DNA of 64,000 bases from Candidatus Geocrenenecus dongiae (GCA_023267855.1 JALNLN010000001.1:23620-87619); one strand, 5' to 3'; shown: positions 20,522-40,845, counted from the first letter of the stretch. Translations and numbers: made by a program. Notes: generated from the letters alone by a model not told the origin.

Positions 20522-21697
20522 TCAGTAGTACTTTATATTCCTCTTCTTTATATAATCATATACTTTCTTAGCAGTCTTCTCCATGCCAAATGCTTTAATG
20601 TGTAGCAGTGTATCAGCATATGCTTTAGCTCTTATCGCTTCTCTCGTTTCATCACTTATCTTCTCAAGATCTTGGAAGAATTCTTTTATAGCATACTTAC
20701 AATTCTCTACAAATATCTCAGCTTCTGACACTCCTTCTCTACCATACTTTTCTAACGTCCATCTATATATTCTTCTGAAGAGTTCTGGTTCATATATTCT
20801 CAATATTTCAAATACCGTTAACATGTAGTATGTTGCAACGTTCCCTTTATTTATCATGCCTTTTGGAAATACTTCAGCTATTAGGTATAATGGTGTTCCA
20901 CTTACACCATGTTGAACTATTCTTGTTGGATAACCCTGACTCCATAATGCTTCAACTATTTCTACTGTTCTCTTCAAGTTTATTCCTAGTTGTGGAATTA
21001 TATTTCCCTGTGGGTCTACTGATACTCCATGTTTTGAACCGTTGTTTATTGCAAGCCAATGTATATCTATCCCGTTTTCCTTCATCGTTTTAATATAGTA
21101 TAATGCTTCTTCAACTTCTGTTAATTCACTTTTACCGATTTCACCTACTTCTCCTTCTCTTCCATAATTTCTACTGCCTATCTTTTCATCTATGTATCTA
21201 AATAACTCTACACCAACTTCTACAATTTTACTCAACTGTTCAGGTACAGTATCCTTACTCAAATCGAAAAGGTATGATGTATCAATTGCATAACTTGTAA
21301 ACCCTGCTTCAATTCTCGCATCTAGTTCTCTCTTCACATTTTCTATCTCTTCACTGGTTCCCTTCTTAACGACCACGTGATCCGCATGTAGAGTGTAGCC
21401 AAACCAATCTACATTCTCAGCTGCTTTCCTAACTCTTTCCGCAAAAGTTTTAGGAGTAAGACCTGTATACCCACCTTTAAGATTCATCTCGGATAACGCT
21501 AACTCTAAGATTACAACGTTCTCTGTATCTTTCGCTGCTTTAAGAACTCCTTCTACAACCTCGATAGTTAGTCTAGGATTAACTGCTAAAATAATCTCTC
21601 TAGGAGGAGTTAACGCTTCAAATAATATATTCCCAGGTATCGGATCTCTAAATTCTTCAAAGAAAGAAATATATTCAGGTTTCATACTATGCTCCAT
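20522..21697 (-). CDS. Class II (metal-dependent) ketose-bisphosphate aldolase-like protein (FbaA/GatY/GatZ-like); the assignment is tentative
   Basis: VVILELALSEMNLKGGYTG and a TLHADHV region resemble the class II FBA PF01116 pattern (..ILQ.S...., ..LHLDHG). Its 391 aa is longer than canonical FbaA. It sits convergent to pfk. Confidence 0.4.
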   Translation of the reverse strand: MEHSMKPEYISFFEEFRDPIPGNILFEALTPPREIILAVNPRLTIEVVEGVLKAAKDTENVVILELALSEMNLKGGYTGLTPKTFAERVRKAAENVDWFGYTLHADHVVVKKGTSEEIENVKRELDARIEAGFTSYAIDTSYLFDLSKDTVPEQLSKIVEVGVELFRYIDEKIGSRNYGREGEVGEIGKSELTEVEEALYYIKTMKENGIDIHWLAINNGSKHGVSVDPQGNIIPQLGINLKRTVEIVEALWSQGYPTRIVQHGVSGTPLYLIAEVFPKGMINKGNVATYYMLTVFEILRIYEPELFRRIYRWTLEKYGREGVSEAEIFVENCKYAIKEFFQDLEKISDETREAIRAKAYADTLLHIKAFGMEKTAKKVYDYIKKRNIKYY

Positions 21698-26586: not shown

Positions 26587-27531
26587 TTATTCTAAGTTCT
26601 TGATTGCTGCGCCTAACGTACTTGGTTTCGTTATTATGCCTCTTGCTTCTACATTATTTTCTTCGAATTTACTGATTATTTCTTTGAGTAGGTTTTCTGC
26701 TTTTTCCGGGTATGTTATTGCGAAGACTGAGGGTCCCGCCCCACTTATACTGAATCCTAGTGCACCTGATTTTAATGCATGTTCTTTTATTTTGTGAAAG
26801 CTTGGTATCATGATGCTTCGAGCAGGTTCAACTACGTAGTCTCTGCTAATTGCTTCTCCCATCATTTCTAGATCTCCTCTCATTATACCTATTATTAGAC
26901 GTGCCAAGCTTGCTTGCTGTTTCGTCATTAATTCTAAGCTCACATTCTTTGGGAGAAGACTTCTAGCATACTCAGTCTTATTCTTTGGAAGATAGACTTT
27001 CGGTGTAACTAAGACTATAGAGAAGTCTACTGAAGGTTTTATGTTAAAGATTACTGGTTTCTCTACATCCAGTATCATCGTGAATCCACCATAAAGAGCC
27101 GGAGCAACATTATCTAGATGAGGTGAACCACATGCAGCTCTCTCTCCTTCTGCTGCAAGTTTAACTAATAGCTCCATCGGAAGTTTTCCTCCTAGAATTG
27201 TGTTCATGGCGTAGGCTGCTGCGGCTGAAGAAGCTCCAGAACTTCCAAGCCCTATGCCTACTGGAACATTCTTGGTTAAATTCATTCTAAACCCTCTTCT
27301 CACACCTAAATACTCCATGACTTTTAATGCTGAAACTACTGCTGAATTCTTCTCTGGTTCTTCTGATATTTCTACGCCTGTATTATTTACTAGCTCGAAT
27401 TCTATCTTATTATCTTCTCTCAGCTCTAATCTAACTATATCTCTAAATCCTTCTATGGCTAGACCAACTATATCAAACCCTGGTCCTAGATTTGCAATTG
27501 TGGCTGGAGCAGATACTTCCACCACTCTCAT
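26587..27531 (-). CDS. thrB: Homoserine kinase (GHMP kinase)
   Basis: The N-terminus SAPATIANLGPGFD and GHMP motif II PVGIGLGSSGASSAAAA are present, and the 314 aa length fits. Confidence 0.8.
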   Translation of the reverse strand: MRVVEVSAPATIANLGPGFDIVGLAIEGFRDIVRLELREDNKIEFELVNNTGVEISEEPEKNSAVVSALKVMEYLGVRRGFRMNLTKNVPVGIGLGSSGASSAAAAYAMNTILGGKLPMELLVKLAAEGERAACGSPHLDNVAPALYGGFTMILDVEKPVIFNIKPSVDFSIVLVTPKVYLPKNKTEYARSLLPKNVSLELMTKQQASLARLIIGIMRGDLEMMGEAISRDYVVEPARSIMIPSFHKIKEHALKSGALGFSISGAGPSVFAITYPEKAENLLKEIISKFEENNVEARGIITKPSTLGAAIKNLE

Positions 27532-27569: not shown

Positions 27570-28598
27570 ATGTTCATCTCTACCGATATAGACGATAAGT
27601 TTAATAGTCTTCCAAGTTTCTTGTTCTCTGTGAGTAACGTTGATTATGATGTAGTGGTTGTAGGAGCTGGGATAGCGGGACTTACAGCAGCAATATATGC
27701 TTCTAGACAGAAGCTTAGAACATTGATAATAGCTAAAGATATTGGTGGACAATTAAATATAACACCAGCTATAGAGAACTATCCAGGATTCAAGGTTGTA
27801 TCGGGTAGTGAATTGATACAGAGAATTTACGATCAAGTTCAAGCTTTAGGAGTTGAGATACTCTTCGATGAAGTAGTAGGTATAGAAGATTCAGAAGGCA
27901 TCTTCCTAGTTAAGACTAAAGATGGATACGAGTTTACTTCAGAAACAGTTATACTAGCATTTGGAAAAACTCCTAGAGAAATGAATGTTCCAGGTGAGAG
28001 AGAGCTTAAAGGTAGAGGTGTAAGCTACTGTGCAATATGTGATGCACCTCTTTTCCAGAATAAACGTGTAGCAGTCGTTGGTTGGGGGCCACAAGCATTT
28101 GAAGCAGTCTCACTCTTATGCAGATACAACAACTATGTATACCTAATTCATAGAGGCAGAAGTAAACTAGAATTAGAGAAAATACCAGAGAAATGTAGAG
28201 AAAGATTTGAAGAATATCCTGAAACAATTGTAAGAGAAGTTAGAGGCGATGCTAAAATTAGATCTATAGTTTTGGAAAGTTTAGAAAATGGGAAGATCTG
28301 GGAGCTTGAGGTCGATGGCGTATTTGTAGAACTTGGGTATGAAATGAAGACAGAGTGGTTGAGAGGTTTTGTAGAGCTGAGTAGAGAGGGAGAGATAATT
28401 GTAGATATGCTTGGAAGAACGAGTAGAGAAGGAGTATTCGCAGCCGGAGATGTAACAAACATACCATACAAACAAGCAGTAATCTCTGCAGGGCAGGGAG
28501 CAATAGCTGCACTCTCAGCATACAACTATATACAGGAAAAGAAAGGAGGCGCAAAGATAAAATCAGATTGGAGGGAAATATTCAGGAAAGATGTATAA
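27570..28598 (+). CDS. trxB: Thioredoxin reductase-like FAD/NAD(P)-dependent disulfide oxidoreductase
   Basis: It has an FAD motif DVVVVGAGIAGLTAA, a redox-active CAICD (CxxC) region and a second Rossmann fold (VAVVGWG). The true start may be an internal TTG/GTG near 27622-27634, because the first 20 residues are atypical. Confidence 0.8.
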   Translation: MFISTDIDDKFNSLPSFLFSVSNVDYDVVVVGAGIAGLTAAIYASRQKLRTLIIAKDIGGQLNITPAIENYPGFKVVSGSELIQRIYDQVQALGVEILFDEVVGIEDSEGIFLVKTKDGYEFTSETVILAFGKTPREMNVPGERELKGRGVSYCAICDAPLFQNKRVAVVGWGPQAFEAVSLLCRYNNYVYLIHRGRSKLELEKIPEKCRERFEEYPETIVREVRGDAKIRSIVLESLENGKIWELEVDGVFVELGYEMKTEWLRGFVELSREGEIIVDMLGRTSREGVFAAGDVTNIPYKQAVISAGQGAIAALSAYNYIQEKKGGAKIKSDWREIFRKDV

Positions 28599-28627
28599 CG
28601 TCTTACAAACTTTTATAGATAGTCTCT

Positions 28628-28816
28628 TTAAGTGATGAGCGCTATGAGACTGAAGATTGCGATAAACCCTAGTAGAAATATTGTGATAATGTTTAGTAAG
28701 GGATAGACCCATTCGATAGTTGAGACTAGATAGAGAAAGTAGACAGATAGACAGAAAACAATACCACACAGTATCTTGAGAATAATATTTACGAAACTCT
28801 GAACTCTAGCACCCAT
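28628..28816 (-). CDS. Small hypothetical membrane protein (2 predicted TM helices)
   Basis: It is a 62-aa hydrophobic ORF tail-to-tail with trxB. The only support is ORF length and hydrophobicity. Confidence 0.25.
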   Translation of the reverse strand: MGARVQSFVNIILKILCGIVFCLSVYFLYLVSTIEWVYPLLNIITIFLLGFIAIFSLIALIT

Positions 28817-28907
28817 CTATATCAACCAAAAAGAAAAGAAAACCACAACCTATTAAACCCAAGCACCACATTTCCTAAAATTTTAAGAAAAAGGTTTAAT
28901 TATAACC

Positions 28908-29030
28908 ATGAACAAAAATATCATCAAGCTCCAGAGGCAGAGAATTATGGATAAAAATACCAAGACATTAAAGAAAGCAACAACATTCTTTTACAGCTTC
29001 TGGAGCTATAGGTATTTTACCCTAGCCTAA
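28908..29030 (+). CDS. Candidate leader peptide (40 aa) with an aromatic-rich C-terminus, upstream of the lysC-asd-aro operon
   Basis: The ATG at 28908 lies about 22-31 nt downstream of an AT-rich TATA-like element (TAAAATTTTA 28877-28886). It translates to MNKNIIKLQRQRIMDKNTKTLKKATTFFYSFWSYRYFTLA, with 8 of the last 14 codons being Phe/Tyr/Trp. Its stop codon lies inside the loop of a GC-rich hairpin. Confidence 0.35.
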   Translation: MNKNIIKLQRQRIMDKNTKTLKKATTFFYSFWSYRYFTLA

Positions 29031-29064
29031 AGGGCTAGGGTGTAAGTCTTTTATATTTTTCTGT
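29019..29064 (+). promoter_or_regulatory. GC-rich hairpin (9-bp stem, ACCCTAGCC/GGCTAGGGT) followed by a T-rich tract, a terminator/attenuator-like element in the lysC-aro leader
   Basis: The stem arms are 29019-29027 and 29033-29041 with loop UAAAG. A T-rich run TCTTTTATATTTTTCTGTT spans 29046-29064. A 12-bp long-range helix AGCUCCAGAGGC (28927-28938) : GCUUCUGGAGCU (28996-29007) lies just upstream. Confidence 0.4.
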
Positions 29065-29080
29065 TGGGGTGTGTTTTTGC

Positions 29081-30307
29081 ATGTCTGGGGTTATAGTTGT
29101 AAAGTTTGGAGGATCTGTTTTGAAAGATCTATCAGCTATTGAGGAAGCTGCTTCGTGGGTAAAGAAGTTGCTTGCTGGCGGCTATAAAATAGTTGTTGTT
29201 GTTTCTGCGATGAAGGGGGTTACTGATGAACTTGTAAATACAGCTAAGATGTTGGCTGGGAATCCTGATCCAGAGTTGATGGATGAAATTCTCTCGATGG
29301 GTGAGAGGATAAGTGCGAGACTCTTTACACTAGCTTTAAGAGAACATGGTGTAAACGCTATGTTTATAGATCCAGCAGACGATTACTGGCCTATAATAAC
29401 AGACTCCAACCATCTAGATGCAGAACCATTATACATTGAAACAAAGAAGAATGTAAAAGAAAAGATAGTTCCATTATTGGAGAGAGGAGTAGTTCCAGTG
29501 GTATGTGGATTCATAGGTGTTACGGTTGATAGGAAGATAACTACGCTTGGAAGAGGGGGAAGCGATACGACCGCCGTCTTGATAGCTAACTGTCTAGAAG
29601 CGGAAGAAGTAGTACTTGTTAAAGATGTTCCAGGAGTTTTCTCAGCAGATCCAGACATAGTTGGAGATTCAGCTAAGATACTGAGTGAACTAGATTTCAG
29701 AGAAGCTCAGGCATTAGTGAAAGGTGGGGCGAAAATAATCCATACGAAAGCTTTGAGATACCTCGATAGAAAGCTCAAACTTAGAATTGCAAGCATGGAA
29801 GAACTTGCAGCCAATGGTGGAACAGTAATTAGAGGATACGATCCAGAGATCGAGGTAAAAACCTCTCCAGTTAGAATAACCATGGTCACGATAATCAGAG
29901 AAGATCTTGACAGTACGGATGTTCTCGAAAAGATCATGAAGCTACTAAAAAAGAGAGATGTAAAAGTACTTGCAGTAACTTGTGAAGAGAAAGCATTGAT
30001 ACTATACTTAGAAGAGAGGGAGGGGATAATTGTAGATGTACATTCATGTTTGGTGAATGAGAGGTTAGGGAAAGCGGTAAGCTTCTACCAAGACCTAGCG
30101 ATGATCACTGTCTCAGGTAGGATGCTTGAGACAAGTCCAGGTATAATACATAAGATTACGAAACCCTTAGCGGAAAACAACATAAACCTCTACGGGCTGA
30201 TAACGATCTCATCGTCTATTAAATTAATTGTATCTAGCTCGGTATTAGAGAAGGCTAGAGAACTACTTGTAAAAATGTTGAGAGAAGAGGTGGAGGTGGT
30301 TACATGA
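29081..30307 (+). CDS. lysC: Aspartate kinase
   Basis: It has VVKFGGSVL and the amino-acid kinase fold, and the C-terminal regulatory region is consistent with ACT domains. A GGGTG Shine-Dalgarno-like sequence lies 10 nt upstream of the ATG at 29081. The track start at 29069 is less likely. Confidence 0.85.
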   Translation: MSGVIVVKFGGSVLKDLSAIEEAASWVKKLLAGGYKIVVVVSAMKGVTDELVNTAKMLAGNPDPELMDEILSMGERISARLFTLALREHGVNAMFIDPADDYWPIITDSNHLDAEPLYIETKKNVKEKIVPLLERGVVPVVCGFIGVTVDRKITTLGRGGSDTTAVLIANCLEAEEVVLVKDVPGVFSADPDIVGDSAKILSELDFREAQALVKGGAKIIHTKALRYLDRKLKLRIASMEELAANGGTVIRGYDPEIEVKTSPVRITMVTIIREDLDSTDVLEKIMKLLKKRDVKVLAVTCEEKALILYLEEREGIIVDVHSCLVNERLGKAVSFYQDLAMITVSGRMLETSPGIIHKITKPLAENNINLYGLITISSSIKLIVSSSVLEKARELLVKMLREEVEVVT

Positions 30308-31356
30308 AGAATTTGAAGATAGCTCTACTTGGAGCAACTGGGATGGTTGGAGTAGAATACATAGAATTTCTACATAGACATCCATGGTTTAAGATATCAA
30401 ATCTATGTGGTAAGAAGAGTGTAGGAAAGAAGTATGGAGAAGCAGTTAAAGCTTTAAAGAATATTCCTAAGGAAGTAGCAGAGATAGAGGTTGTTGAACC
30501 TGATCCGAAGAAGATTGATGCGGATCTCGTGCTCTCAGCTCTACCTTCGGAAGCTGCGAGAGAAATAGAGAAACAATTTGTAGAAAACGGCTACCCAGTT
30601 GTAAGCGAGGCTTCAGCACATAGAATGGAGCCTGACGTACCTTTAATCATACCAGAAGTTAATCCAGATCACCTAGAACTCATAAATATGCAGAAGAAGA
30701 AAAGAAGAGATGGAGGCTTCATAGTAACTACTCCAAACTGTACAGCCGTAGGTCTAATAATGTCACTAAAACCACTACTAGACAATTTCGGTATAAGGAA
30801 GGTGGTAGTCGCAACATACCAAGCAATAACAGGCGCAGGATTTCCTGGAGTCCCATCCTACTCTATCTTAGGAAACATCATACCATATATCAAGAATGAG
30901 GAAGAAAAAGTTTCACAGGAAACTAAGAAGATTTTAGGTAGACTTGAAAATGGAAGGATAAAGTATGCAGAATTCCCGGTTGAAGCATCTTGCGCAAGAG
31001 TCCCAACCATAGATGGACATCTAGAAGCGGTTTATATTGAAACGGAGAAAACTTTTGATCTCGATAGTGTGGTAGAGGGTTTTAGAAACTTTAAAGGTGA
31101 ACCGCAGACTCTAGGTTTACCTTCAGCTCCATCTGAACCTATAATCTTAACAGATCTCGAAGATAGACCTCAACCTAGACTAGATGTTATGGCCGGGTCT
31201 GTGCCTGGTATGAGTATAGTTATTGGAAGAATTAGACGTGGAGAATCTGAGAACTCTCTCAAATACTTCGTCTTAAGTCATAATAGAATTAGAGGTGCAG
31301 CAGGTATAGCTGTACTAACAGCAGAACTCATCTATAAGAAAGGATACATAGGGTGA
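30304..31356 (+). CDS. asd: Aspartate-semialdehyde dehydrogenase
   Basis: It has KIALLGATGMVG, and the catalytic Cys region NCTAVGL is present. It overlaps lysC with ATGA. Confidence 0.85.
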   Translation: MKNLKIALLGATGMVGVEYIEFLHRHPWFKISNLCGKKSVGKKYGEAVKALKNIPKEVAEIEVVEPDPKKIDADLVLSALPSEAAREIEKQFVENGYPVVSEASAHRMEPDVPLIIPEVNPDHLELINMQKKKRRDGGFIVTTPNCTAVGLIMSLKPLLDNFGIRKVVVATYQAITGAGFPGVPSYSILGNIIPYIKNEEEKVSQETKKILGRLENGRIKYAEFPVEASCARVPTIDGHLEAVYIETEKTFDLDSVVEGFRNFKGEPQTLGLPSAPSEPIILTDLEDRPQPRLDVMAGSVPGMSIVIGRIRRGESENSLKYFVLSHNRIRGAAGIAVLTAELIYKKGYIG

Positions 31357-31363
31357 TGTAAAG

Positions 31364-32155
31364 ATGGTTAAAGGTAAACAGGTTAGGATTTCCAGAATAA
31401 CTTGCATGGGGAAGATGGTGTGCGTACCTATGGATCATGGTGTAACTGTAGGTCCAATAAAAGGTCTAGATAATATCTATGAAACAATAAGGAAAGTGGA
31501 GAGAGGTGGAGCAACGGCAATACTAACACATAAAGGTATATTGAAGAATCTGGAATCAGTTCCAAGTCTAGGCTTAATCATACACTTATCTGCATCAACA
31601 AATCTCTCACCCAATCCTAACTGGAAAGTCAAGATAGGCACTCTCAAAGAAGCTATAAGACTTGGAGCAGACGCTGTCTCAGTACACATCAATATAGGTA
31701 ATAAGGATGAGCAGGACATGCTAGTAAAACTTGGGCTACTTGCAGATGAATGTGATGAATGGGGCATACCATTGATAGCTATGATGTATCCTCGTGGAGA
31801 GAACATTAAAGATCCAAACGATCCATACACAATAGCTCACATCGCTAGAATAGCCGCAGAACTCGGAGCAGATATAGTGAAAGTGCCTATGCCTTCATCT
31901 AACCCAGAAGATATAAAGATCATAACAAAGACCTGTCCAATACCGGTAGTTGCAGCAGGAGGACCGAAGATGGAGGATGATAAACAAGTACTACAGCTGG
32001 CTGAGGCTGTTGTTAGAGCTGGAGGAGCAGGAATAACTTTTGGTAGAAATGTCTTCCAACATGAAAGCCCAGAACTAATGGTGAAAGCATTGAGAGCAGT
32101 GGTTATAGAGAGGTTTTCGATAGAGAGAGCTTTAGAGATACTTAAAGGTGGATGA
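31364..32155 (+). CDS. aroA': 2-amino-3,7-dideoxy-D-threo-hept-6-ulosonate synthase (AroA'), a class I aldolase-like enzyme of the DhnA/archaeal FBA family
   Basis: The archaeal class I aldolase fold (MVCVPMDHG Schiff-base region) is present. The 263 aa length fits, and it sits immediately upstream of 3-dehydroquinate synthase II, which distinguishes it from glycolytic FBA. Confidence 0.7.
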   Translation: MVKGKQVRISRITCMGKMVCVPMDHGVTVGPIKGLDNIYETIRKVERGGATAILTHKGILKNLESVPSLGLIIHLSASTNLSPNPNWKVKIGTLKEAIRLGADAVSVHINIGNKDEQDMLVKLGLLADECDEWGIPLIAMMYPRGENIKDPNDPYTIAHIARIAAELGADIVKVPMPSSNPEDIKIITKTCPIPVVAAGGPKMEDDKQVLQLAEAVVRAGGAGITFGRNVFQHESPELMVKALRAVVIERFSIERALEILKGG

Positions 32156-33188
32156 GTTGGACAAGCAGGTGATAATCTACCCTGAAGAGGTTAGTAGAGA
32201 GTTAGTTCAAACAGCAGTCACGTACGGTATCAGAAACATCTATGCAAAGAACCAACTCCCAGAAGAACTAAGTATAGAACAACTCAACCTATACATAGAA
32301 GAACCAACTGGGCAGATAAAGATAGCTAGTAGAGAAGGTGTAGAAGAATCTATAAAGATAATTGTTAAGGAGCCTGAAGATATTGAGAAGATACTTTCGG
32401 CTGTCGAGAAAGGTTACAGAAAGATATTTGTTGATACGTATAGCTGGAAAATAATTCCTTTAGAAAATATTGTCGCTGAGCTTCAGAAAATGGATGTTAA
32501 ACTTTATGCTTACGGTTCAAATGTAGAAGAAGTTGAATCACTTTTAAATGTTTTAGAGAAAGGTGTAGATGGAGTAGTAGTAAAGATCAAGAAGACAGAC
32601 GAGATAGGTAGGCTCGCCGAGATCTTCAAACAGATAAGATTTCTAGATATTCTTGATGGAGAGGTTACTGAAGTAGAGAATATCGGTGTAGGAGACAGAG
32701 CATGTGTCGATACTGTCTCAATACTAGATCCAGGTGAAGGAATGCTTGTAGGCAATTTTAGTAGATTCTTCTTCCTAATCCACAATGAAGGAACTGGATC
32801 ACCATTTACTTCTCCTAGACCTTTTAGAGTAAATGCTGGGGCCGTACACTGTTACGTAATGATGGCCGATGGTACAACCAAGTATCTCTCAGAACTATCA
32901 GCTGGGATGCGTGTACTCGTAACTACTCTCAGAGGTAGAGCGAGACCAGTAACTATAGGTAGAGTTAAGATAGAGAGGAGACCGTTAAAGATTGTTAGAG
33001 CAAGAGTTGGAGAAGCTGAAGGCTCTGTAATACTACAAGATGCTGAAACAATACGTCTTGTATCTAAAGATGGCGAACAAATATCAGTAACAGAATTGAA
33101 TCCAGGAGAGAAGGTAAAAGTACATGTATCAGAACAGAAAGCAAGACACTTTGGGAAAGCTGTAGAAGAATTCATAATAGAACGTTGA
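32148..33188 (+). CDS. aroB': 3-dehydroquinate synthase II (archaeal-type, AroB')
   Basis: Strong family pattern: GDRACVDT.S.L..GEGMLVG..S...FL.H.E.......RPFRVNAG.VH.Y....DGTTKYLSEL.AG..VL......R...IGRVKIERRPL......A.G......ILQ.AETIRLV...GE.ISV..L.PG.KV.V. Confidence 0.85.
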   Translation: MDELDKQVIIYPEEVSRELVQTAVTYGIRNIYAKNQLPEELSIEQLNLYIEEPTGQIKIASREGVEESIKIIVKEPEDIEKILSAVEKGYRKIFVDTYSWKIIPLENIVAELQKMDVKLYAYGSNVEEVESLLNVLEKGVDGVVVKIKKTDEIGRLAEIFKQIRFLDILDGEVTEVENIGVGDRACVDTVSILDPGEGMLVGNFSRFFFLIHNEGTGSPFTSPRPFRVNAGAVHCYVMMADGTTKYLSELSAGMRVLVTTLRGRARPVTIGRVKIERRPLKIVRARVGEAEGSVILQDAETIRLVSKDGEQISVTELNPGEKVKVHVSEQKARHFGKAVEEFIIER

Positions 33189-33191
33189 GAA

Positions 33192-33872
33192 ATGAAGACG
33201 AAGATATGCGTAAGCGTTAAAGCTAGAACAGTAGAAGAGTTGGAAGATAAAGCATCTAAAGCTTTTAAACTTGGAGGAGATTTAGTGGAAGTTAGATTAG
33301 ACTATCTCGAAGACATATCTATACCGAAAATCTCAAATTTGTTTTCCAAGTATGCTGGTAAGATTATCGCAACTCTTAGACCAAGATGGGAAGGAGGAGT
33401 ATATGAAGGTGATGAAGAATCACGTCTCTCAATCCTCAAATCTATAGCTAGACTTAACCCTAAATTCATCGATATAGAGTATAATGTGGCTGAGAATCTG
33501 GATCTATCTTACTCAAATATAGGGAGAATAATTTCATGGCATAATTTTAACGAAACACCGTCTCTTGAAATTCTCTCCACGATTGTAGATAAATGTTTAG
33601 AGTTAGGCGATATAGTAAAGATAGTAACTATGGCGAAATCTCTGAAAGATTCTCTAAACGTTCTAAAATTGTATAATCTGTATCCTAGAGAGAAGCTCGT
33701 AGCTTTCAATATTGGAGAATATGGATTATTTTCAAGAATATTATCTGCTTCAGCAGGCTCACCTATAATCTACACATGTCTACCAGGAGAGGCTCTGGCA
33801 CCTGGACAACCTGTAGTTAGCGATGTGAAAGAAATACTTGAAGTACTAGGTGGTGGAGAAGTATGGAGATAA
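33192..33872 (+). CDS. aroD: 3-dehydroquinate dehydratase, type I
   Basis: Its size (226 aa), operon position and TIM-barrel type I DHQase-like N-terminus (KICVSVKARTVEEL) support the call. Confidence 0.7.
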   Translation: MKTKICVSVKARTVEELEDKASKAFKLGGDLVEVRLDYLEDISIPKISNLFSKYAGKIIATLRPRWEGGVYEGDEESRLSILKSIARLNPKFIDIEYNVAENLDLSYSNIGRIISWHNFNETPSLEILSTIVDKCLELGDIVKIVTMAKSLKDSLNVLKLYNLYPREKLVAFNIGEYGLFSRILSASAGSPIIYTCLPGEALAPGQPVVSDVKEILEVLGGGEVWR

Positions 33873-34726
33873 ATTCTAAGACTCGTCTATGTTGTCTGAT
33901 AGGTCATCCAGTTAAACACTCTATCTCACCTAACATACATAACACACTCTTCCAGAAACTAAACCTAAACTATGTTTACTTAGCATTCGACATAGATCCT
34001 AAAGATCTACGAAGTACTGTAAGAGGATTTAGAGCAATGAACGTTCTAGGATTCAATGTGACAATCCCCCACAAGATCAATGTTATCAAGTATCTAGACA
34101 AAATAGATTCTTCAGCAAAAGAATCAGGCTCAGTAAACACTGTAGTGAATAGAGGAGGAGAGCTGGTAGGATACAATACGGATATAGATGGGATTATCAA
34201 TAGTTTGAAAGACGTCGAGTACGATAATTGTGGAAGAGCATTAGTAATAGGTGCAGGTGGAGTAGCAAGAGCAGCTATAGTTGCTTTAAGAAATCTTGGG
34301 TTAGAAGATATAATAGTTTGTAATAGAAGATTGTGGAGAGCGGCTGCACTTGTTAGAAAATTTAGGAATGATCACTTGAAGATGAAGGCTATAAGTATAT
34401 CTGAAGCATCAAGATACTCTAGAAACGCATCAATAATAATAAACGCTACACCTATAGGAATGTGGCCGAATGTTGATGAAACACCTTTAAACTCACATGA
34501 AATATCTAGAAACGCTGTCGTCTTAGACCTAGTTTACAATCCTCTGAAAACTAAGTTGATAATTGAAGCAGAGAAAGCAGGTGCTAAAACCATTACGGGG
34601 CTTAAGCCTCTGATCGAACAAGCAGCAAAAGCTTTCATGCTCTGGACATCCATAGATCCTCCTAGAGAATTAATGTGGAGTGTTGCTGAAAAAACTCTCA
34701 AGGAGATTTTTAGAAATGAAGGTTGA
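33863..34726 (+). CDS. aroE: Shikimate dehydrogenase
   Basis: It has CCLIGHPVKHSISPNIHN (substrate-binding motif) and an NADP Rossmann fold (VIGAGGVARAA). Confidence 0.85.
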   Translation: MEINSKTRLCCLIGHPVKHSISPNIHNTLFQKLNLNYVYLAFDIDPKDLRSTVRGFRAMNVLGFNVTIPHKINVIKYLDKIDSSAKESGSVNTVVNRGGELVGYNTDIDGIINSLKDVEYDNCGRALVIGAGGVARAAIVALRNLGLEDIIVCNRRLWRAAALVRKFRNDHLKMKAISISEASRYSRNASIIINATPIGMWPNVDETPLNSHEISRNAVVLDLVYNPLKTKLIIEAEKAGAKTITGLKPLIEQAAKAFMLWTSIDPPRELMWSVAEKTLKEIFRNEG

Positions 34727-35588
34727 AGCAGTAGTACATGGGGCAGTGTCTATAGTAAACGCTATACCTCTAGGAATAGGATCTGCTCTAGGAGTAGACT
34801 TAACCACAAAAGCCATCGTAGAAGTAGAAGAATCAAAGATAGAAACAATCAACATAGACATATACGTAGAAGGTGAAGAAGATGTTGATAAAAGTTTAGC
34901 TGAGAATACTATAAGAGAATTGTTGAGGATAGCTAAGGGAACTTACAGAGTTGATGTTAAGATTTACTCAAATATACCTATCGCAAGAGGGTTGAAGAGT
35001 TCGAGTGCAGCTGCAGACGCAATCGTCTTAGCCGCTTCTAAAGCTCTAGATCTAGAGCTCTCTACAGACCAATTAGTAAACATGGCTGTAGATATATCAA
35101 TAAAGTCTGGGGTAACAGTAACGGGAGCTTACGATGATGCTTTAACATGTATGATAGGTGGGGTCAATATAACGGACAATCTGAAGAGGAAGATACTTGC
35201 GCACTGGGATCTGGATGAAGATATCTCAATAATAATAATGATTCCTCCAGAGAAGTTCTACACGAAAGAAGTAGATGTTGGAGCACTTAGATCTTTCTCA
35301 AACCTCTCTATGAGAGCTGTAGAACAAGCGTTAAACGGGAACATATGGGATGCAATGATAATAAACGGCCTAGTAGTTTCATCAGCATTAAACATAGACT
35401 ATACACCTGTTCTAAGAGCTTTAAAGAAGAAAGCTATCGCTGCTGGGATAAGTGGTAAGGGACCGTCCATAGTTGCAGTTACATATCCAGAGCATGAAGA
35501 AGAAGTTAAGAAAGAATTAGAGAGATTCGGTAGAGTCATCAGGGTTAAGCCTAACAATCGTGAAGCATATGTAAGAATATTAGATTAG
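34716..35588 (+). CDS. aroK: Shikimate kinase, archaeal GHMP-kinase type
   Basis: It has GHMP motif PIARGLKSSSAAADA. The likely start is the Met at 34716 (MKVEAVVHGAVSIVNAIPLG), 11 nt into the aroE 3' end. The track ORF begins at 34680. Confidence 0.8.
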   Translation: MKVEAVVHGAVSIVNAIPLGIGSALGVDLTTKAIVEVEESKIETINIDIYVEGEEDVDKSLAENTIRELLRIAKGTYRVDVKIYSNIPIARGLKSSSAAADAIVLAASKALDLELSTDQLVNMAVDISIKSGVTVTGAYDDALTCMIGGVNITDNLKRKILAHWDLDEDISIIIMIPPEKFYTKEVDVGALRSFSNLSMRAVEQALNGNIWDAMIINGLVVSSALNIDYTPVLRALKKKAIAAGISGKGPSIVAVTYPEHEEEVKKELERFGRVIRVKPNNREAYVRILD

Positions 35589-35615: not shown

Positions 35616-36485
35616 TTACGATATGCTTAAGAATCTTCTAAAGATTTTATCTAAACCTACGTCGTACCCGTCCATCAACTTCTTCAGTATACTGAAAAAC
35701 TTCAATCCAACCTTCACTAGAATCTCGTCAATCTTTTCTGGATCTTCTTCAACAGTTATGTGTTCTCCTGGAGAGTATTCACTTACAACGTAGAGTATGC
35801 AGCCGACCAGAATCTTTATCTTCTTTCCCCTAGAAGCTTCATAAAAATCTCTTAGCAGACAGTATGTAGAGAACTCCATCTCGCTCGAGATAACACCCAT
35901 CTTTCTATAAGATTCAAGCCTAGCTTCTAGTAGTTTGCATCTAGGGGAGAATTCAGGTCTTTCCTTAAAGTATAGATCATCTTTAGTGTGTACTGGCCCC
36001 AGCCACAGATTCTTATTTAAACTGTATCCAAGTTCTTCTGCTGCGAGTACTAGTATTGGTAGAAGTTCAAAACTTGAGACAGCTGGATATTCTAATCCTA
36101 CTATAGATTCTGTTGAACCCTCATCTCTAACACATGATGTAGGTATATGTAGATGTCCAGCATGAACATGTTCTTGGAGGGATCCTGATGTACCTATCCT
36201 CAAAATTACCATGAAGTCTTCTTTAACAGATTCTATAATTTCTGGAAGTATTACCATACAGCTAGATGGACCCATACCAGTAGATACAGCAGAAATCTTC
36301 AATCCATCATATAATCCTTCTACTATAACATGACCTCTACGACCTACATACACCTTAGGGTTTAAAATAAATTCTGAAACTTTCTTGATTCTTCCAGCTG
36401 AACCTCCAGTCAAGATATAATTACTTAGCTCGCTGATTTCTAAATGATTCATCTTTCCAGAAGAGGTAGAAAACGTAATCTTCAT
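35616..36485 (-). CDS. PNP/UDP family 1 nucleoside phosphorylase (purine nucleoside/MTA/uridine phosphorylase-like)
   Basis: It has STGMGPSS (phosphate-binding) and RIGTSGSL motifs, plus a C-terminal extension of about 60 aa. Confidence 0.65.
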   Translation of the reverse strand: MKITFSTSSGKMNHLEISELSNYILTGGSAGRIKKVSEFILNPKVYVGRRGHVIVEGLYDGLKISAVSTGMGPSSCMVILPEIIESVKEDFMVILRIGTSGSLQEHVHAGHLHIPTSCVRDEGSTESIVGLEYPAVSSFELLPILVLAAEELGYSLNKNLWLGPVHTKDDLYFKERPEFSPRCKLLEARLESYRKMGVISSEMEFSTYCLLRDFYEASRGKKIKILVGCILYVVSEYSPGEHITVEEDPEKIDEILVKVGLKFFSILKKLMDGYDVGLDKIFRRFLSIS

Positions 36486-36520
36486 AGAGTAGAAGATGAT
36501 TTTGATATAGATTAAGATTT

Positions 36521-36790
36521 CTATTCTTTCTTCTCTGTTTCTAGCTCTTTCTCCAGTTCTTTCTCTATTTCTTCAATAGGTTTTGGAGGAGGAGTGGTTG
36601 CGAGTGTGTATCCAATCCATGCGATTAATGCAAGTAAACCAGTTACAGCAACAAAAGCTGTTAGCTTAAGTATTATTAGATCCCAGTTTGTGAAGAATAG
36701 AAGCCAGCTATACACAACTATCCCTACAAGCGAAACCAACAATATTGTAAAACCTAAGACTTGGTCTCTGCCCATTTTAACCACATCCAA
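36521..36790 (-). CDS. Small membrane protein with a K/E-rich C-terminus (hypothetical)
   Basis: It has two predicted TM helices followed by PPPKPIEEIEKELEKELETEKKE. It sits between two PNP paralogs on the same strand. Confidence 0.35.
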   Translation of the reverse strand: MDVVKMGRDQVLGFTILLVSLVGIVVYSWLLFFTNWDLIILKLTAFVAVTGLLALIAWIGYTLATTPPPKPIEEIEKELEKELETEKKE

Positions 36791-36847
36791 AATTAAGTAT
36801 AGAGTTAAATTTATCTCTTTTTTGTTTGCAATGTATACGAAGTTTTC

Positions 36848-37672
36848 CTATTTCTTAGTAAGAAGACTTGGATAAAAGTATTTTTTACCTTTCTTTTCTT
36901 TTAATTCTCTCCATTCTTCAAGAATCTTTACTGCTTCAATAGCTGTTTTTATTGCATCTTCTTCTCCCTTCACTTCAAAGGTGTCTTTAACACGGTTTGC
37001 AAATACAACACATACTGATCCTGCCTTCAAATTATATATCGCTGCTAGTGTAAAGATTGTAGAAGACTCCATATCGAAATTAAGAACTCTCATTTTCTGG
37101 AGATCTTCTAAGAGTTTTTCAGGATAACTCCACATGTATCCACCGTATCCAGGTCTACTCTGACCTAGATAGAAGCTGTCTGTGGTAGCTGTAACACCCA
37201 CATGGTATTTGAGGTTTAATGATTCAGCTGCTTCAATTAGAGCTAGAGTTACTTCGTAATCCGCGTATGCAGGATACCCGTCTATAACGTAGCTTTTACT
37301 AGTACCTTCAAGTCTTACAGCTGCAACCGAGATTACGAGATCTCCTACATCTATTTCAGGTTGTATGGCTCCTGTAGATCCTACTCTGATGAATGTTCTA
37401 GCACCGGCTCTCGCAAGTTCTTCTATTGCTATAGCTGTCGATGGTGACCCTATACCAGTTGAACACGCACATAAAGGTATACCTGAAGTCTTACCAACCC
37501 ATACTCTAAACTCTCGATGATAAGATAATTCTCTTCCCTCCTCTAAGAATCTAGCTATCTTTAAAACTCTATCAGGATCTCCTGGAATCAATGCGTATTC
37601 AGGTATCTCTCCAGGCTTAACTTTAACATGGTAAAACTCTCCTTCAATTGTTCTAGGCTCGGTAGCTTTCAT
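36848..37672 (-). CDS. PNP/UDP family 1 nucleoside phosphorylase (DeoD/Udp/MTAP-like)
   Basis: It has CSTGIGSPSTAIAIEEL, RVGSTGAI and ME motifs (FDMES), characteristic of hexameric PNP/UDP enzymes. Confidence 0.75.
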   Translation of the reverse strand: MKATEPRTIEGEFYHVKVKPGEIPEYALIPGDPDRVLKIARFLEEGRELSYHREFRVWVGKTSGIPLCACSTGIGSPSTAIAIEELARAGARTFIRVGSTGAIQPEIDVGDLVISVAAVRLEGTSKSYVIDGYPAYADYEVTLALIEAAESLNLKYHVGVTATTDSFYLGQSRPGYGGYMWSYPEKLLEDLQKMRVLNFDMESSTIFTLAAIYNLKAGSVCVVFANRVKDTFEVKGEEDAIKTAIEAVKILEEWRELKEKKGKKYFYPSLLTKK

Positions 37673-37754: not shown

Positions 37755-39044
37755 ATGGTGAGAGTTTACGTTGAGCCTTCAAGATTTAGTGGTTTTGTAG
37801 AAGCTGTACCTAGTAAGAGCTATACTCATAGAGTTTACTCTACTTCCCTCCTCGTTAATGGTAGGAGTGTAGCTTTGAACCCACTATTCTCAAGTGATAC
37901 TGAAGCTACATTAAATGCTTGTAGAATGTTTGGAGCAGAAACAATTCTGAGTAAGGGAAAGGTGGAGTTGTCATGTAGGAGGTTGAAGCTTCCAGATGAT
38001 GTAGTGAATGCTCAGAATTCTGGAACAACCCTCCGATTCTTTACAGCACTGTCTTCTCTCGCACCTCCTGGCTACGTCGTGTTAACTGGAGATGAAAGTC
38101 TGAGAAAAAGACCTATGCAGCCACTCATAGATGCGTTGAAAATGCTTGGAGTAGAATGTTGGTCAACACGTGGAAATGGTTTAGCACCGATAGTAGTCAA
38201 GTCAGGTGGGCTTAGAGGTGGAGAAGTAGAGATAAGAGGAGACGTGTCTTCTCAATTCATTTCTGCTCTCTTGATATCTTCTGTGAAAGCTGAGAAAGAT
38301 GTAGATATAATAGTTAGAGAAGAACAAGTCTCGAAACAATACATAGATGCAACTATTAAAGTCTTAGAGAATTTTGGTTTTAAGATCTATAGGGAAGGCT
38401 ACAGCTACTATCATGTAAGAGGGGGGCAGGAGGGACGACCCTCAGTATTCAGGGTGCCTGGAGATTTTAGTTCAGCTTCATTTCTAATAGCTGGAGCATA
38501 CCTGACTGGTGGAGAGGTGGAGATAAGCAATCTTGACACAACTTTACCTCAATCTGATTCCAAGATAATAGATATTGCTAAAGATTTCGGATGCCGTGTA
38601 GAGTTTAGAAGTGGGGACACTATTTACGTGAAGTGTTCAGGCATTGGGGAGGGAGGAGAATATGTTCTTACAGATTCTCCAGACCTACTGCCAGTAGTAG
38701 CAGTTATGGCCGTAAAAACTGTTGGAGAAACGATAATCAGAGGTGTAGAACATGCTAAATTTAAGGAAAGTGATAGAATAAATTCTACGGCTATAGAGTT
38801 GAAGAAACTTGGAGTAGATGTTGAAGTTCTTAAAGATGGTTTAAAGATTAAAGGTAGAGAAGAAGTTGAAGGTGGGGTTGAGCTTTCATCTCATAGCGAT
38901 CATAGACTCTTCATGGCGTTCACAGTTCTAGCTTCAGCAACGAAGAAAGGATGTATAGTAGATGGATTAGAATGGGTTAAAGTTTCATACCCAGAATTCA
39001 TAAACCACCTCAAGAAGCTAAATGTATCTATTAGAGAAATCTAG
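37755..39044 (+). CDS. aroA: 3-phosphoshikimate 1-carboxyvinyltransferase (EPSP synthase)
   Basis: PSKSYTHRV matches the (L)PGSKS.T.R motif, and its 429 aa shows the two-domain EPSPS pattern. Confidence 0.85.
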   Translation: MVRVYVEPSRFSGFVEAVPSKSYTHRVYSTSLLVNGRSVALNPLFSSDTEATLNACRMFGAETILSKGKVELSCRRLKLPDDVVNAQNSGTTLRFFTALSSLAPPGYVVLTGDESLRKRPMQPLIDALKMLGVECWSTRGNGLAPIVVKSGGLRGGEVEIRGDVSSQFISALLISSVKAEKDVDIIVREEQVSKQYIDATIKVLENFGFKIYREGYSYYHVRGGQEGRPSVFRVPGDFSSASFLIAGAYLTGGEVEISNLDTTLPQSDSKIIDIAKDFGCRVEFRSGDTIYVKCSGIGEGGEYVLTDSPDLLPVVAVMAVKTVGETIIRGVEHAKFKESDRINSTAIELKKLGVDVEVLKDGLKIKGREEVEGGVELSSHSDHRLFMAFTVLASATKKGCIVDGLEWVKVSYPEFINHLKKLNVSIREI

Positions 39045-39080: not shown

Positions 39081-40190
39081 TTGGCTGGAAACATTCTGGG
39101 GAAATCATTCGTCGTAGTCAGTTTTGGAGAAAGCCATGGTAAATGTATAGGAACAGTTATTGATGGATGTCCAGCTGGATTGAAGATATCTGAAGAAGAT
39201 GTTCAAAGAGAACTTGATTTAAGAAAACCTAGATCTCTACAGATACATACTCAGAGAACTGAAGAAGATAAGGTCGAGATACTTTCAGGAATCTTTAATG
39301 GATATACTACGGGTGCACCGATATGTATGATTGTCTGGAATCGTGATGTAAGGAGCATGGATTATGAAGTAGTGCGTTATCTTCCAAGACCAAGCCATGC
39401 AGACTATTTTGCATACATCAAGTACGGGGGATTCAACGATTATAGAGGTGGTGGACGCTTCTCTGGGAGAATAACTGCGGGATTCGTTATGGCTGGAGCT
39501 GTAGCTAAGAAGTTGCTGAGAGAAGTTCTTAACATAGAAGTGGTTGCATATTCTCTAGAGATAGGTGGTGTTAGAGCAGAGAACTTTACCTTAGAAGATG
39601 CAGTGAAGTACAGGTATGAGAATGATGTTAGAGCACCTGACAAGAGTTCTGCGGAAAAGATGATGGAGAAGATTATTGAAGCGAGGTCAAGAGGTGACAG
39701 CGTTGGAGGTATTATTGAATGTGTGGTTACAGGTTTACCGATAGGCTTAGGAGAACCAGTCTTCGATTCACTAGACTCTGATCTAGCTAAAGCATTATTC
39801 TCTATACCGGCGGTTAAAGGTGTTGAGTTTGGAGCAGGATTTAAGATAGCTAGAATGCTGGGATCTCAAAGCAACGACCCATTCACTATAAGAGATAATA
39901 AAATAGTTGTTGAAAAGAATGATTCAGGTGGAATTGTAGGCGGGATCTCGACAAGCGCACCTCTAGTATTTAGGGTAGCTTTCAAGCCACCTGCATCTAT
40001 AAGCATACCGCAGAAGACTGTAGATATAAGAGAGATGAAGGAGAAGGAACTAGTGATAACTGGGAGACATGATCCATGTATCGTTCCCAGAGCTGTACCT
40101 GTAGTTGAAGCTGTTACAGCAATAGTGCTCGTAGACCACGCAATTAGATCTGGACTCATACCGCCAGTCTTGGAGAAACGAGATGTCTAG
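39081..40190 (+). CDS. aroC: Chorismate synthase
   Basis: The N-terminus has FGESHG and is followed by GRSSARETA-like regions (RPSHADY, GGGRFSGR). The start codon is uncertain and may be an upstream or near-cognate start. Confidence 0.85.
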   Translation: MAGNILGKSFVVVSFGESHGKCIGTVIDGCPAGLKISEEDVQRELDLRKPRSLQIHTQRTEEDKVEILSGIFNGYTTGAPICMIVWNRDVRSMDYEVVRYLPRPSHADYFAYIKYGGFNDYRGGGRFSGRITAGFVMAGAVAKKLLREVLNIEVVAYSLEIGGVRAENFTLEDAVKYRYENDVRAPDKSSAEKMMEKIIEARSRGDSVGGIIECVVTGLPIGLGEPVFDSLDSDLAKALFSIPAVKGVEFGAGFKIARMLGSQSNDPFTIRDNKIVVEKNDSGGIVGGISTSAPLVFRVAFKPPASISIPQKTVDIREMKEKELVITGRHDPCIVPRAVPVVEAVTAIVLVDHAIRSGLIPPVLEKRDV

Positions 40191-40845
40191 AAAAGAGAGT
40201 TTAAAAATTAAGGCCGGAGAAAGATCTAGAGATATTGGGGGATGGCTTTCTGTCGGTGTAGATCTAGCTGGCTCTAGGAAAAACTGGACAGGATTATGTA
40301 AAATGAATGCAAACCTGTTTTGTGAAACAAGTAAAGTTAAGATGGAGGAGGAGATAATCCAATACATCTTAGATGCAGATCCAGAGGTAGTTGCAGTAGA
40401 TGCACCACTCTGCATGCCTCCCCCAAACACTCATCTACGTAAATGTGATAGATGCTTAGTAGAGATGGGTATACATGTTTTACCACCAACACTTTTAGGA
40501 ATGAAGATGTTGACAAAGAGGGCCATGAATCTTAAAGAGAAATTATTGGAGGTGGGGTATCGGGTAATAGAAGTCTATCCAACAGGCTCGCTTAAGATTC
40601 TAGGTCTCCCTGAGAGAAAATTCGGTGTAGAAGATTTGAAGAAGAAACTTTTAGAAATTGGTGTTAGAGGTTTGAAGCGAGAGGGATTAGAAAGCGTACA
40701 TGAAATCGATGCTGTACTCTGCGCATTAACGGGTATAGCTTATCTTACAGGCAAATACATAGAGATTGGATCTCCAGAGGAATGTACACTCATACTCCCC
40801 TCTCCAGACTTCCTATCTTACATAACTAGATCCCTCAAAACTTAA
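40183..40845 (+). CDS. DUF429-like protein (predicted RNase H-fold)
   Basis: GVDLAG...W first-strand motif and VVAVDAPL pattern are typical of DUF429. It overlaps the aroC stop by 8 nt. Confidence 0.45.
   Translation: MSRKESLKIKAGERSRDIGGWLSVGVDLAGSRKNWTGLCKMNANLFCETSKVKMEEEIIQYILDADPEVVAVDAPLCMPPPNTHLRKCDRCLVEMGIHVLPPTLLGMKMLTKRAMNLKEKLLEVGYRVIEVYPTGSLKILGLPERKFGVEDLKKKLLEIGVRGLKREGLESVHEIDAVLCALTGIAYLTGKYIEIGSPEECTLILPSPDFLSYITRSLKT

Follow-up and report, generated by a model that had tools for sequence, protein, structure and literature searches.

The subject of this paper is a run of seven genes on the plus strand of a 64,000-nucleotide stretch of DNA from Candidatus Geocrenenecus dongiae (GCA_023267855.1, JALNLN010000001.1:23620-87619), hereafter the window. 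In this run, the genes for aspartate kinase (lysC) and aspartate-semialdehyde dehydrogenase (asd) stand directly in front of those for the archaeal route to 3-dehydroquinate and shikimate, and a short open reading frame (ORF) crowded with aromatic codons lies upstream of lysC. Coordinates are those of the 64-kb window; L-numbered loci are genomic loci of relatives and carry their own coordinates. The closest homologues of the window kinase are labeled Nitrososphaerota, Aigarchaeota, or Caldarchaeales, and several hot-spring metagenome-assembled genomes (MAGs) at NCBI (GCA_038853185.1, GCA_023268075.1, and others) hold an identical 2-amino-3,7-dideoxy-D-threo-hept-6-ulosonate (ADH) synthase sequence and neighborhood. 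The host is a hot-spring archaeon, a Caldarchaeales (‘Aigarchaeota’) member of the Nitrososphaerota.

The seven genes fill positions 29081-35588. Families were assigned by NCBIfam and Pfam scans, with scores read against the curated cutoffs (given here as score versus cutoff).

29081-30307, plus strand: lysC, aspartate kinase, 408 aa, with an amino-acid-kinase domain and ACT domains; member of the aro-linked kinase clade
30304-31356, plus strand: asd, archaeal/eukaryal-type aspartate-semialdehyde dehydrogenase (TIGR00978, asd_EA, 437 versus 301), in ATGA overlap with lysC
31364-32155, plus strand: aroA', ADH synthase (TIGR01949, NF005556, and PDB comparison)
32148-33188, plus strand: aroB', 3-dehydroquinate (DHQ) synthase II (PF01959, 344.9 bits, profile positions 13-344 of 344)
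33192-33872, plus strand: aroD, type I 3-dehydroquinate dehydratase (TIGR01093, 159.7 versus 139.3)
33863-34726, plus strand: aroE, shikimate dehydrogenase (NF001319, 282.6 versus 252)
34716-35588, plus strand: aroK, archaeal GHMP-type shikimate kinase (TIGR01920, 237 versus 126.85), starting at ATG 34716 with an alternative GTG at 34680

From lysC to aroK the six junctions measure -4 (ATGA), +7, -8, +3, -10, and -11 nt, that is, overlaps at four of the six and a widest gap of 7 nt. An earlier reading made from the sequence alone (the sequence-only reading) had described the genes as packed with overlaps or gaps of 7 nt or fewer, and the recomputed range of -11 to +7 nt bears this out; the family models likewise agree with its naming of the genes as lysC, asd, AroA', AroB', aroD, aroE, and GHMP shikimate kinase. 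The mechanical ORF list gives seven successive plus-strand ORFs from 29069 to 35588, with aroK beginning at GTG 34680. The -8 junction presupposes a GTG start at 32148 for aroB'; a start equivalent to 32157, the gene callers’ choice in two sister MAGs, would turn it into +1.

Two of the assignments call for comment. The lysC product passes TIGR00657 (282 versus 208.7) and falls under the aspartate kinase equivalog models (354 versus 379); PF00696 covers residues 4-238 and ACT_7 residues 337-396. As the aroB' product matches PF01959 over its full length yet stays below the NCBIfam equivalog cutoffs (best 329 versus 392), it represents a divergent DHQ synthase II subfamily.

The aroA' product deserves special attention, since the sequence-only reading had named it an ADH synthase and had set a fructose-bisphosphate (FBP) aldolase at this place as the point that would count against itself. 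The protein lies above the equivalog cutoffs of TIGR01949 (304.1 versus 299.45) and NF005556 (326.5 versus 241) and reaches 161.7 on the archaeal class I FBP aldolase model, whose cutoff is 430. In the PDB it scores 250.8 bits with 2QJG (Methanocaldococcus jannaschii MJ0400) and 100.2 bits with the class I FBP aldolase 1OJX. A glycolytic aldolase was rejected on these grounds, and at sequence level (about 250 versus about 100 bits) the identification as ADH synthase is solid. Its GADIVK motif aligns with the MJ0400 counterpart, and we take the lysine in it to be the Schiff-base residue. Synthesis of 3-amino-4-hydroxybenzoate (3,4-AHBA) of the GriI/GriH type was also considered and rejected: the BagB and BagC models remain far under cutoff, and aroD, aroE, and aroK come next.

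Conservation of the gene order and of the kinase lineage

Gene order was surveyed at the genomic loci of kinase homologues taken at falling identity. The order lysC-asd-aroA'-aroB'-aroD-aroE-aroK is kept in 12 distinct Nitrososphaerota lineages with 45-68% kinase identity to the window and unrelated flanks. These comprise L007 (68%), L097/L098 and L101 (66-68%), L099/L100 (62%), L008 (60%), L009 and L103 (about 52%), and L010, L011, L012, and L013 (45-49%); L011 is a complete genome (CP066694.1), and L012 is a Nitrososphaerales MAG in which a trp operon lies divergently upstream of the block. Because the same order recurs in 12 lineages whose flanks differ, the arrangement is not due to chance.

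In most relatives the block runs uninterrupted into aroA, aroC, a chorismate-mutase/aminotransferase fusion, and tyrA, and aroA-aroC is contiguous with aroK in L008-L013 and L099. Since relatives keep this contiguity, the seven genes are the front part of a longer ancestral operon, an eleven-gene aromatic super-operon that was split in this sublineage by opposite-strand phosphorylase genes (described with the neighboring genes below).

Loci from other archaea and from bacteria are the matches listed from a genome-collection scan with the kinase alignment, mostly bacterial kinases and none from the window's own genome or its close relatives, and were read by tblastn with the window proteins. 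Among these listed matches, an aspartokinase stands directly before aroA'-aroB' in four Bathyarchaeia MAGs (L015-L018), where aroD-aroE-aroK-aroA-aroC follow, and in the Asgard MAG Candidatus Borrarchaeum (L014), in all five cases with no asd between the kinase and aroA'. Two of the five, L016 and L014, hold an additional lysC-asd pair a few kb off on the other strand of the same contig (5349-7563, minus strand, with 10001-17870 in L016; 7585-9729 with 75-3199 in L014). One kinase in these two loci is thus paired with asd, while the other heads an aroA'-aroB' cluster without asd. The listed matches further include archaeal lysC-asd pairs without aro genes (L019, L020), haloarchaeal kinase loci with neither aro nor asd genes within 10 kb (L022, L024), and 62 bacterial loci, where lysC and asd are adjacent in 11 and joined to aroA'/aroB' in none. 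Metagenomes scanned with the kinase protein yielded four loci, none of them relevant.

A neighbor-joining tree was built from 27 sequences over 393 columns with 200 bootstraps. It unites the aro-linked kinases of Nitrososphaerota, Borrarchaeum, and Bathyarchaeia in a single clade (74%), within which Nitrososphaerota plus Borrarchaeum (99%) and the Bathyarchaeia group (100%) are supported. The asd-linked Bathyarchaeia kinases stand apart from it (100%) and group with haloarchaeal enzymes; the asd-linked kinase of Borrarchaeum (470 aa) clusters with bacterial enzymes. Judged by this phylogeny, the window kinase is the orthologue of enzymes that elsewhere in archaea form an extra aro-operon isozyme beside a general kinase. 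Membership in the aro-linked clade is the strongest support for the idea behind the sequence-only reading, namely that lysC-asd supplies aromatic biosynthesis.

A profile search with the general, asd-linked kinases gave 120 listed matches that all appear to be of the Bathyarchaeia type (57-100% identity to the Bathyarchaeia query); every taxon-bearing name among them is Bathyarchaeia, with no Nitrososphaerota. With phmmer, mainly the catalytic half of the window kinase (about residues 4-261) aligns to the solved structures 5YEI, 3L76, 3C1M, 2HMF, 3AAW, and 3AB4, and the weakest match, E. coli AKIII (2J0W), extends to residue 369. As the regulatory half does not align to most solved aspartokinases, the allosteric effector cannot be inferred from the sequence. 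In Caldarchaeum, the PGAP names ‘aspartate kinase’ and ‘ACT domain-containing protein’ were tried as a mark of two paralogues and abandoned: the two are sister subclades within one genus-level clade, a pattern that fits orthologues or recent paralogues alike.

The aromatic-rich leader in front of lysC

The spacer between the upstream gene and lysC measures 483 nt and holds a short ORF ending in TTFFYSFWSYRYFTLA and a stop. The elements of this region, with stems from an RNAalifold consensus of six Caldarchaeales loci, are as follows.

28887-28904, plus strand: putative archaeal BRE (transcription factor B recognition element)/TATA-like element, AAAAAGG TTTAATTATA, read from the sequence
28927-28938, plus strand: 5' arm of stem 1 (AGCTCCAGAGGC), holding a GAGG Shine-Dalgarno (SD)-like motif 9 nt before the leader ATG
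28947-29030, plus strand: leader ORF of 27 codons, MDKNTKTLKKATTFFYSFWSYRYFTLA and stop; 8 of the last 14 residues are Phe, Tyr, or Trp (tail FFYSFWSYRYFTLA)
28996-29007, plus strand: 3' arm of stem 1 (GCTTCTGGAGCT), over the S-F-W-S codons that open the aromatic run
29019-29041, plus strand: GC-rich hairpin 2 (ACCCTAGCC taaag GGCTAGGGT), with the leader stop TAA (29028-29030) in its loop
29047-29061, plus strand: T-rich tract (TCTTTTATATTTTTC) 3' of hairpin 2, a possible archaeal oligo-T termination signal

The element at 28887-28904 may act as the promoter; a AAAGGTTTAATTAnAAC block occurs at equal distance in L007, L097, and L101, and an A/T-rich equivalent in L008 and L099. A further in-frame ATG, at 28908, probably precedes the expected transcription start or coincides with it. 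The conserved unit consists, in order, of the BRE/TATA-like element, a CAGAGGC motif with the SD-like GAGG (7-11 nt ahead of the leader start across Caldarchaeales relatives), the ORF, and a hairpin around its stop, from which a further 35-50 nt lead to the lysC ribosome-binding site. Caldarchaeales leader ORFs have 24-28 codons and an invariant C-terminus, YF[AT]LA-stop, which is present in L007, L008, L097/L098, L099/L100, and L101. The aro-linked kinases of Bathyarchaeia are also preceded by leaders, unrelated in nucleotide sequence but with the same aromatic crowding, a start codon, and an SD-like motif. The leader region of the window spans 28887-29061; those of the relatives are given with their leader peptides.

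L007 (9808-10003): MRSRENKTKVVFFTFWSYFYFALA
L008 (9806-10003): MAGFSLTGWRFFFGFWSYGYFALA
L097 (7806-8003): (TTG start) GSPNITARTFFYGVWSFYYFALA
L099 (1990-2184): MNPWKNAEVIGHRFHTYFFYYYTYFALA
L101 (7812-8003): MELTKNACIVFFFSFWSYYYFALA
L015 (Bathyarchaeia; L015-L018 all 9760-10006): MLNAKTKTDIAALQFSSFDYYFYYYHFP
L016 (Bathyarchaeia): MSNHADSQTSWQMRFFSFGYYFYYYFR
L017 (Bathyarchaeia): MNNLQVNPKRFQNYSFEYCFYYYY
L018 (Bathyarchaeia): MNTKEANQHVNAWQRDSFDYGFYYFGYFP

Across the six Caldarchaeales and four Bathyarchaeia loci, leaders of 24-29 codons have Phe, Trp, or Tyr at 8-10 of their last 14 residues. About 3,700 small ORFs, including those of some 170 kb of related loci, served as a control. Of the 969 small ORFs counted over the window's two strands, the leader alone has 8 or more aromatic residues among its last 14. 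At least 7 are reached by 5 of 1,245 small ORFs in the Caldarchaeales loci and by 3 of 1,466 in the Bathyarchaeia loci, and all of these are leaders. In front of the general kinases (L016, L019, L020) or the haloarchaeal kinases no such leader was found; there, no more than 3 of the last 14 residues are aromatic. In two archaeal lineages it is specifically the aro-linked kinases that aromatic-rich leaders precede, and the aromatic-amino-acid leader of which the sequence-only reading had spoken is indeed there: 27 codons, 8 of 14 terminal residues aromatic, and conserved in relatives.

Other ORFs in front of lysC are weaker: ...LFLT[AS][SG]Y[RS][WY]YRYSELDASL in L009 and L103, ...TVFRFF in L010, and ...IFGFRY in L013, each followed by a stop. 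A same-clade kinase that stands alone in Candidatus Caldarchaeum (L102) is also preceded by a short ORF, ...NVFRFTCYS and stop, which shares the 11-mer GTCTTCCGCTT with the L010 leader. An Rfam scan of 28500-29200 (E of at most 1) returned no leader family and two chance-level matches only. Farther upstream, in the spacer between the thioredoxin-reductase-like gene and the lysC promoter, 28629-28687 (plus strand) gives a weak, sub-threshold match to the C/D-box small RNA sR5 (18.1 bits, E about 0.1) with a GTGATGA C-box-like motif.

Stem 1 pairs the SD-containing AGCUCCAGAGGC with GCUUCUGGAGCU and forms in five of the six loci. Hairpin 2 has nine pairs, two of them with compensatory changes over the six loci, and is predicted in every single-sequence fold. 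In the Bathyarchaeia alignment, AGGUUCGAAGC just ahead of the leader start pairs with GCUUCGA within the leader, and a GCCCAGAAC...GUUCUGGGC hairpin begins directly after the stop codon, its loop T-rich and containing runs of T4-T7. Unrelated primary sequences thus lead, each independently, to the prediction of the same two-stem layout in the two lineages, and in both a distance of 0-12 nt separates the 5' arm of hairpin 2 from the last aromatic codons.

Probable coupling of precursor supply to aromatic synthesis

Read along the pathway, the block would encode a full route from aspartate to shikimate 3-phosphate. The lysC product would convert aspartate to aspartyl phosphate and the asd product would carry it on to aspartate semialdehyde, which ADH synthase would condense with DKFP (6-deoxy-5-ketofructose-1-phosphate); DHQ synthase II would then yield 3-dehydroquinate, and aroD, aroE, and the GHMP kinase would lead to dehydroshikimate, shikimate, and shikimate 3-phosphate. 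In the established archaeal route (White 2004; Porat et al. 2006; cited in PMC9012536), aspartate semialdehyde and DKFP give ADH and then dehydroquinate by the enzymes MJ0400 and MJ1249. The window matches this set, with an MJ0400-like aroA' (250 bits), a PF01959 aroB', and the archaeal forms of aroD, aroE, and the GHMP kinase. In model methanogens and haloarchaea, the genes of the DKFP route are not known to be linked to lysC or asd.

Aspartokinase is classically governed by lysine, threonine, and methionine. Since aspartate semialdehyde is a direct precursor of dehydroquinate, control of aromatic synthesis must reach back to this enzyme; and because it performs the ATP-consuming, carbon-committing step, its gene, here together with asd, would be put under the same promoter as the aro genes. 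We consider it quite probable that the block is the front of an aspartate-to-shikimate super-operon with an aromatic-tuned leader, a reading that makes no claim to exclusive use. The window and its relatives show how these genomes may have solved the problem, namely by building a separate lineage of kinase into the aro operon behind an aromatic-codon leader. There are two wirings, with asd in Nitrososphaerota and without asd, beside a general kinase, in Bathyarchaeia and one Asgard MAG. Judged from sequence and gene order, this widely conserved operon clearly exemplifies the wiring of precursor supply into an archaeal shikimate operon. It predicts polycistronic expression that responds to aromatic supply, as well as feedback on the kinase by Phe, Tyr, Trp, or chorismate-derived signals.

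Archaea couple transcription and translation. Expression would apparently be tuned to aromatic amino-acid supply through translation of the 27-codon leader, whose eight Phe/Tyr/Trp codons lie near its 3' end. If Phe-, Tyr-, or Trp-tRNA ran short, a ribosome stalled at the last aromatic codons would sit over hairpin 2's 5' arm and block the hairpin, but after termination and departure of the ribosome the hairpin would be free to form; the output could be termination, factor access, processing, or stability. From its codons and layout, ribosome-sensed control by aromatic amino-acid supply is likely, and the invariant YF[AT]LA-stop hints that an arrest-peptide mechanism is conceivable.

Bacteria offer well-known counterparts in the leader-peptide attenuators pheL-pheA and trpL-trpE and in ribosome-arrest leaders such as TnaC. 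The resemblance to pheL and trpL lies in a short ORF between promoter and first gene that is dense in end-product codons and has a GC-rich hairpin after it; the conserved C-terminal YF[AT]LA-stop recalls arrest peptides. The differences are the archaeal host, the mixture of Phe, Tyr, and Trp codons, which suits an operon of the common pathway, and the two non-competing stems, which form no clear terminator/antiterminator pair and have no conserved U-tract. The predicted layout, in which one stem would sequester the SD and a hairpin adjoins the stop codon, is unlike the terminator/antiterminator scheme of bacteria.

We know of no amino-acid-specific leader peptide demonstrated in Archaea, and our literature search found no paper on aromatic or any other amino-acid-specific leader peptides in this domain. 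The aromatic leader could be the part of the locus that is new for Archaea. We advance only tentatively, at slightly less than an even chance, that the Caldarchaeales and Bathyarchaeia leaders are ribosome-sensed regulators (attenuators or arrest peptides) and the first amino-acid-specific leader-peptide control described in Archaea. The leader is in any case a tractable sequence element for asking whether Archaea use ribosome-mediated leader control, and its recurrence with a different sequence in Bathyarchaeia makes it a candidate for such control. If true, sensed leaders would have as their target the kinase by which carbon is committed to the shikimate route that depends on aspartate semialdehyde.

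The gene linkage itself is probably already described, although the same literature search found no paper on lysC-asd-aroA' linkage. A 2009 study by Lo, Bonner, Xie, D'Souza, and Jensen reportedly concluded that the contexts of ask genes imply specialization for ectoine or aromatic amino acids. That study reportedly holds the same idea as ours, in that an aspartokinase amid aromatic-pathway genes implies specialization for the aspartate-semialdehyde-dependent dehydroquinate route. To this idea the present analysis adds how widely the linkage occurs (in 12 Nitrososphaerota lineages, in Bathyarchaeia, and in one Asgard MAG), the separate clade, the leaders, and the presence of an aro-linked and a general kinase on one contig.

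A further parallel is Ask_Ect, the specialized aspartokinase co-transcribed with ectABC(D) in Proteobacteria (PMC5924519; PMC3187862). As here, a pathway consuming aspartate semialdehyde has an aspartokinase gene within its own operon, an arrangement that places precursor supply under that pathway’s regulation. Ask_Ect operons normally lack asd, like the aro operons of Bathyarchaeia, whereas the window operon includes it; moreover, Ask_Ect serves an osmolyte pathway and always occurs beside a LysC, whereas the pathway of the window operon is primary aromatic biosynthesis. Bacterial ask-asd operons, on the other hand, have lysC followed directly by asd, as in the window and in the archaeal loci L019 and L020, but no aroA'-aroB' after the pair, and the archaeal cases checked have no aromatic leader.

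On how far lysC-asd is reserved for aromatics, the evidence divides. The sequence-only reading had cast the pair as a dedicated aromatic supplier. Its coupling to aromatic biosynthesis stands, carried by gene order, kinase clade, and leader, and we hold that the pair is probably coupled to and co-regulated with that pathway; exclusivity over threonine and methionine does not follow from these. Strict dedication would call for another aspartokinase at some other genomic site, whether or not accompanied by another asd, to feed Thr/Met synthesis. The aro-linked clade does coexist with a second, asd-linked kinase in L016 and L014, Ask_Ect of the ectoine clusters is a precedent (PMC5924519), and an aromatic leader on a sole pair would starve Thr/Met synthesis. 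However, the single asd of those two-kinase loci goes with the general kinase, while that of the window lies inside the aro operon. The 64-kb window contains no second amino-acid-kinase/ACT protein or asd, nor hom, thrC, or dap genes; the general-kinase profile search returned Bathyarchaeia only among the matches listed; and thrB, which the sequence-only reading had placed apart at 26587-27531 and which was found there on the minus strand, is a conserved divergent neighbor in the window, L007, L097, L098, and L101. Strict dedication therefore seems to us somewhat unlikely. Because asd lies in the aro operon here and with the general kinase elsewhere, a single shared asd fits at least as well as a dedicated one, and the window pair may also be the cell’s only source of aspartate semialdehyde for Thr/Met.

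Taken to its end, sharing would make lysC-asd a sole, general-purpose pair of bacterial type, historically fused ahead of an aro operon, with the aromatics as one large consumer. We see this as a serious possibility, though one that falls short of even. Pairs of lysC and asd without aro genes are frequent (at least 11 bacterial loci and the archaeal L019 and L020), asd is in the operon with thrB nearby, and a same-clade kinase can work as a gene on its own, as L102 shows. The window kinase is nevertheless phylogenetically apart from the asd-linked general kinases, it belongs to the group that aromatic-codon leaders precede, and its position at the head of the aro genes is kept down to 45% identity. 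That there is no operon at all, so that lysC-asd would have transcripts apart from those of the aro genes and a compact genome would account for the packing, is highly improbable given overlaps at four of six junctions, a largest gap of 7 nt, and an order conserved in 12 lineages while the flanks change, even if archaeal internal promoters within coding sequence cannot be scanned reliably.

The upstream ORF may also be something other than a sensed leader, such as a structured RNA or protein-binding site with an incidental frame, or a small hydrophobic peptide of another role. Stem 1 and the FWSY codons are invariant in DNA in five of six loci, so a constraint on the RNA could explain the conserved peptide; an alternative-hairpin logic and an Rfam leader family are both missing from what was found. 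Still, L099 has lost stem 1 and retains ten aromatic codons, Bathyarchaeia leaders share the aromatic crowding, start codon, and SD-like motif despite unrelated nucleotides, and the enrichment is unique among the roughly 3,700 small ORFs. We judge this explanation distinctly unlikely.

Several observations weigh against a super-operon front with an aromatic-tuned leader. Stem 1 shows no covariation beside its invariance and its loss in L099, and the T tract after hairpin 2 is present in the window and L099 (at least 5 T) but not in L007, L097, or L101. The structure search found no mutually exclusive terminator/antiterminator pairing, only two independent stems. When ribosome footprints at the first or last aromatic codon or the stop were masked in ten loci, accessibility of the lysC ribosome-binding site did not change consistently, and a translational-sequestration model was rejected on this basis. 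Aromatic leaders are weak in the distant Nitrososphaerota L010-L013, the key node of the simple kinase tree has 74% support, and internal promoters may exist within the block. Lastly, the L102 kinase has no asd or aro gene within 9 kb; its gene (9001-10239) is monocistronic, with a convergent deoxyhypusine synthase gene downstream.

Neighboring genes in the window

Downstream of aroK, the remainder of the ancestral operon is detached.

37755-39044 and 39081-40190, plus strand: aroA and aroC, with their own A/T-rich upstream region and no leader

The gap from aroK to aroA is about 2.1 kb and holds opposite-strand genes of the nucleoside-phosphorylase family. At 35616-37672 (minus strand), two PNP_UDP_1 (uridine/purine nucleoside phosphorylase-like) genes and an ORF of about 85 aa separate aroK from aroA-aroC; against a uridine phosphorylase cutoff of 280, the second copy (36848-37672) passes with 301 and the first scores 103. 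The same PNP_UDP_1 insertion is found in L097, L098, and L101. A DUF429 gene (40183-40845, plus strand) overlaps the end of aroC by 8 nt and takes the place of the chorismate-mutase/aminotransferase fusion of other Nitrososphaerota aro operons. Upstream of the block, the thioredoxin-reductase-like gene stands between thrB and lysC.

Farther away, an ATP-PFK-family gene (19433-20464, plus strand) adjoins a divergent class II aldolase or GatZ-KbaZ-like gene (20522-21697, minus strand; PF01116, 68 bits), and the latter might be of interest as a source of the DKFP co-substrate for ADH synthase. ARAGORN calls a tRNA-Thr(AGT) of 80 nt at 48983-49062 and a tRNA-Ser(AGA) of 88 nt at 55527-55614, the latter with its anticodon at position 37, both on the minus strand; as A34 anticodons are unusual in Archaea, these may be intron-containing or misparsed tRNAs. 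Finally, 9691-11688 (plus strand) encodes a 665-aa fusion of a SAM-methyltransferase domain (82-201) with a C-terminal ATP-grasp domain of the D-Ala-D-Ala-ligase type (432-639).

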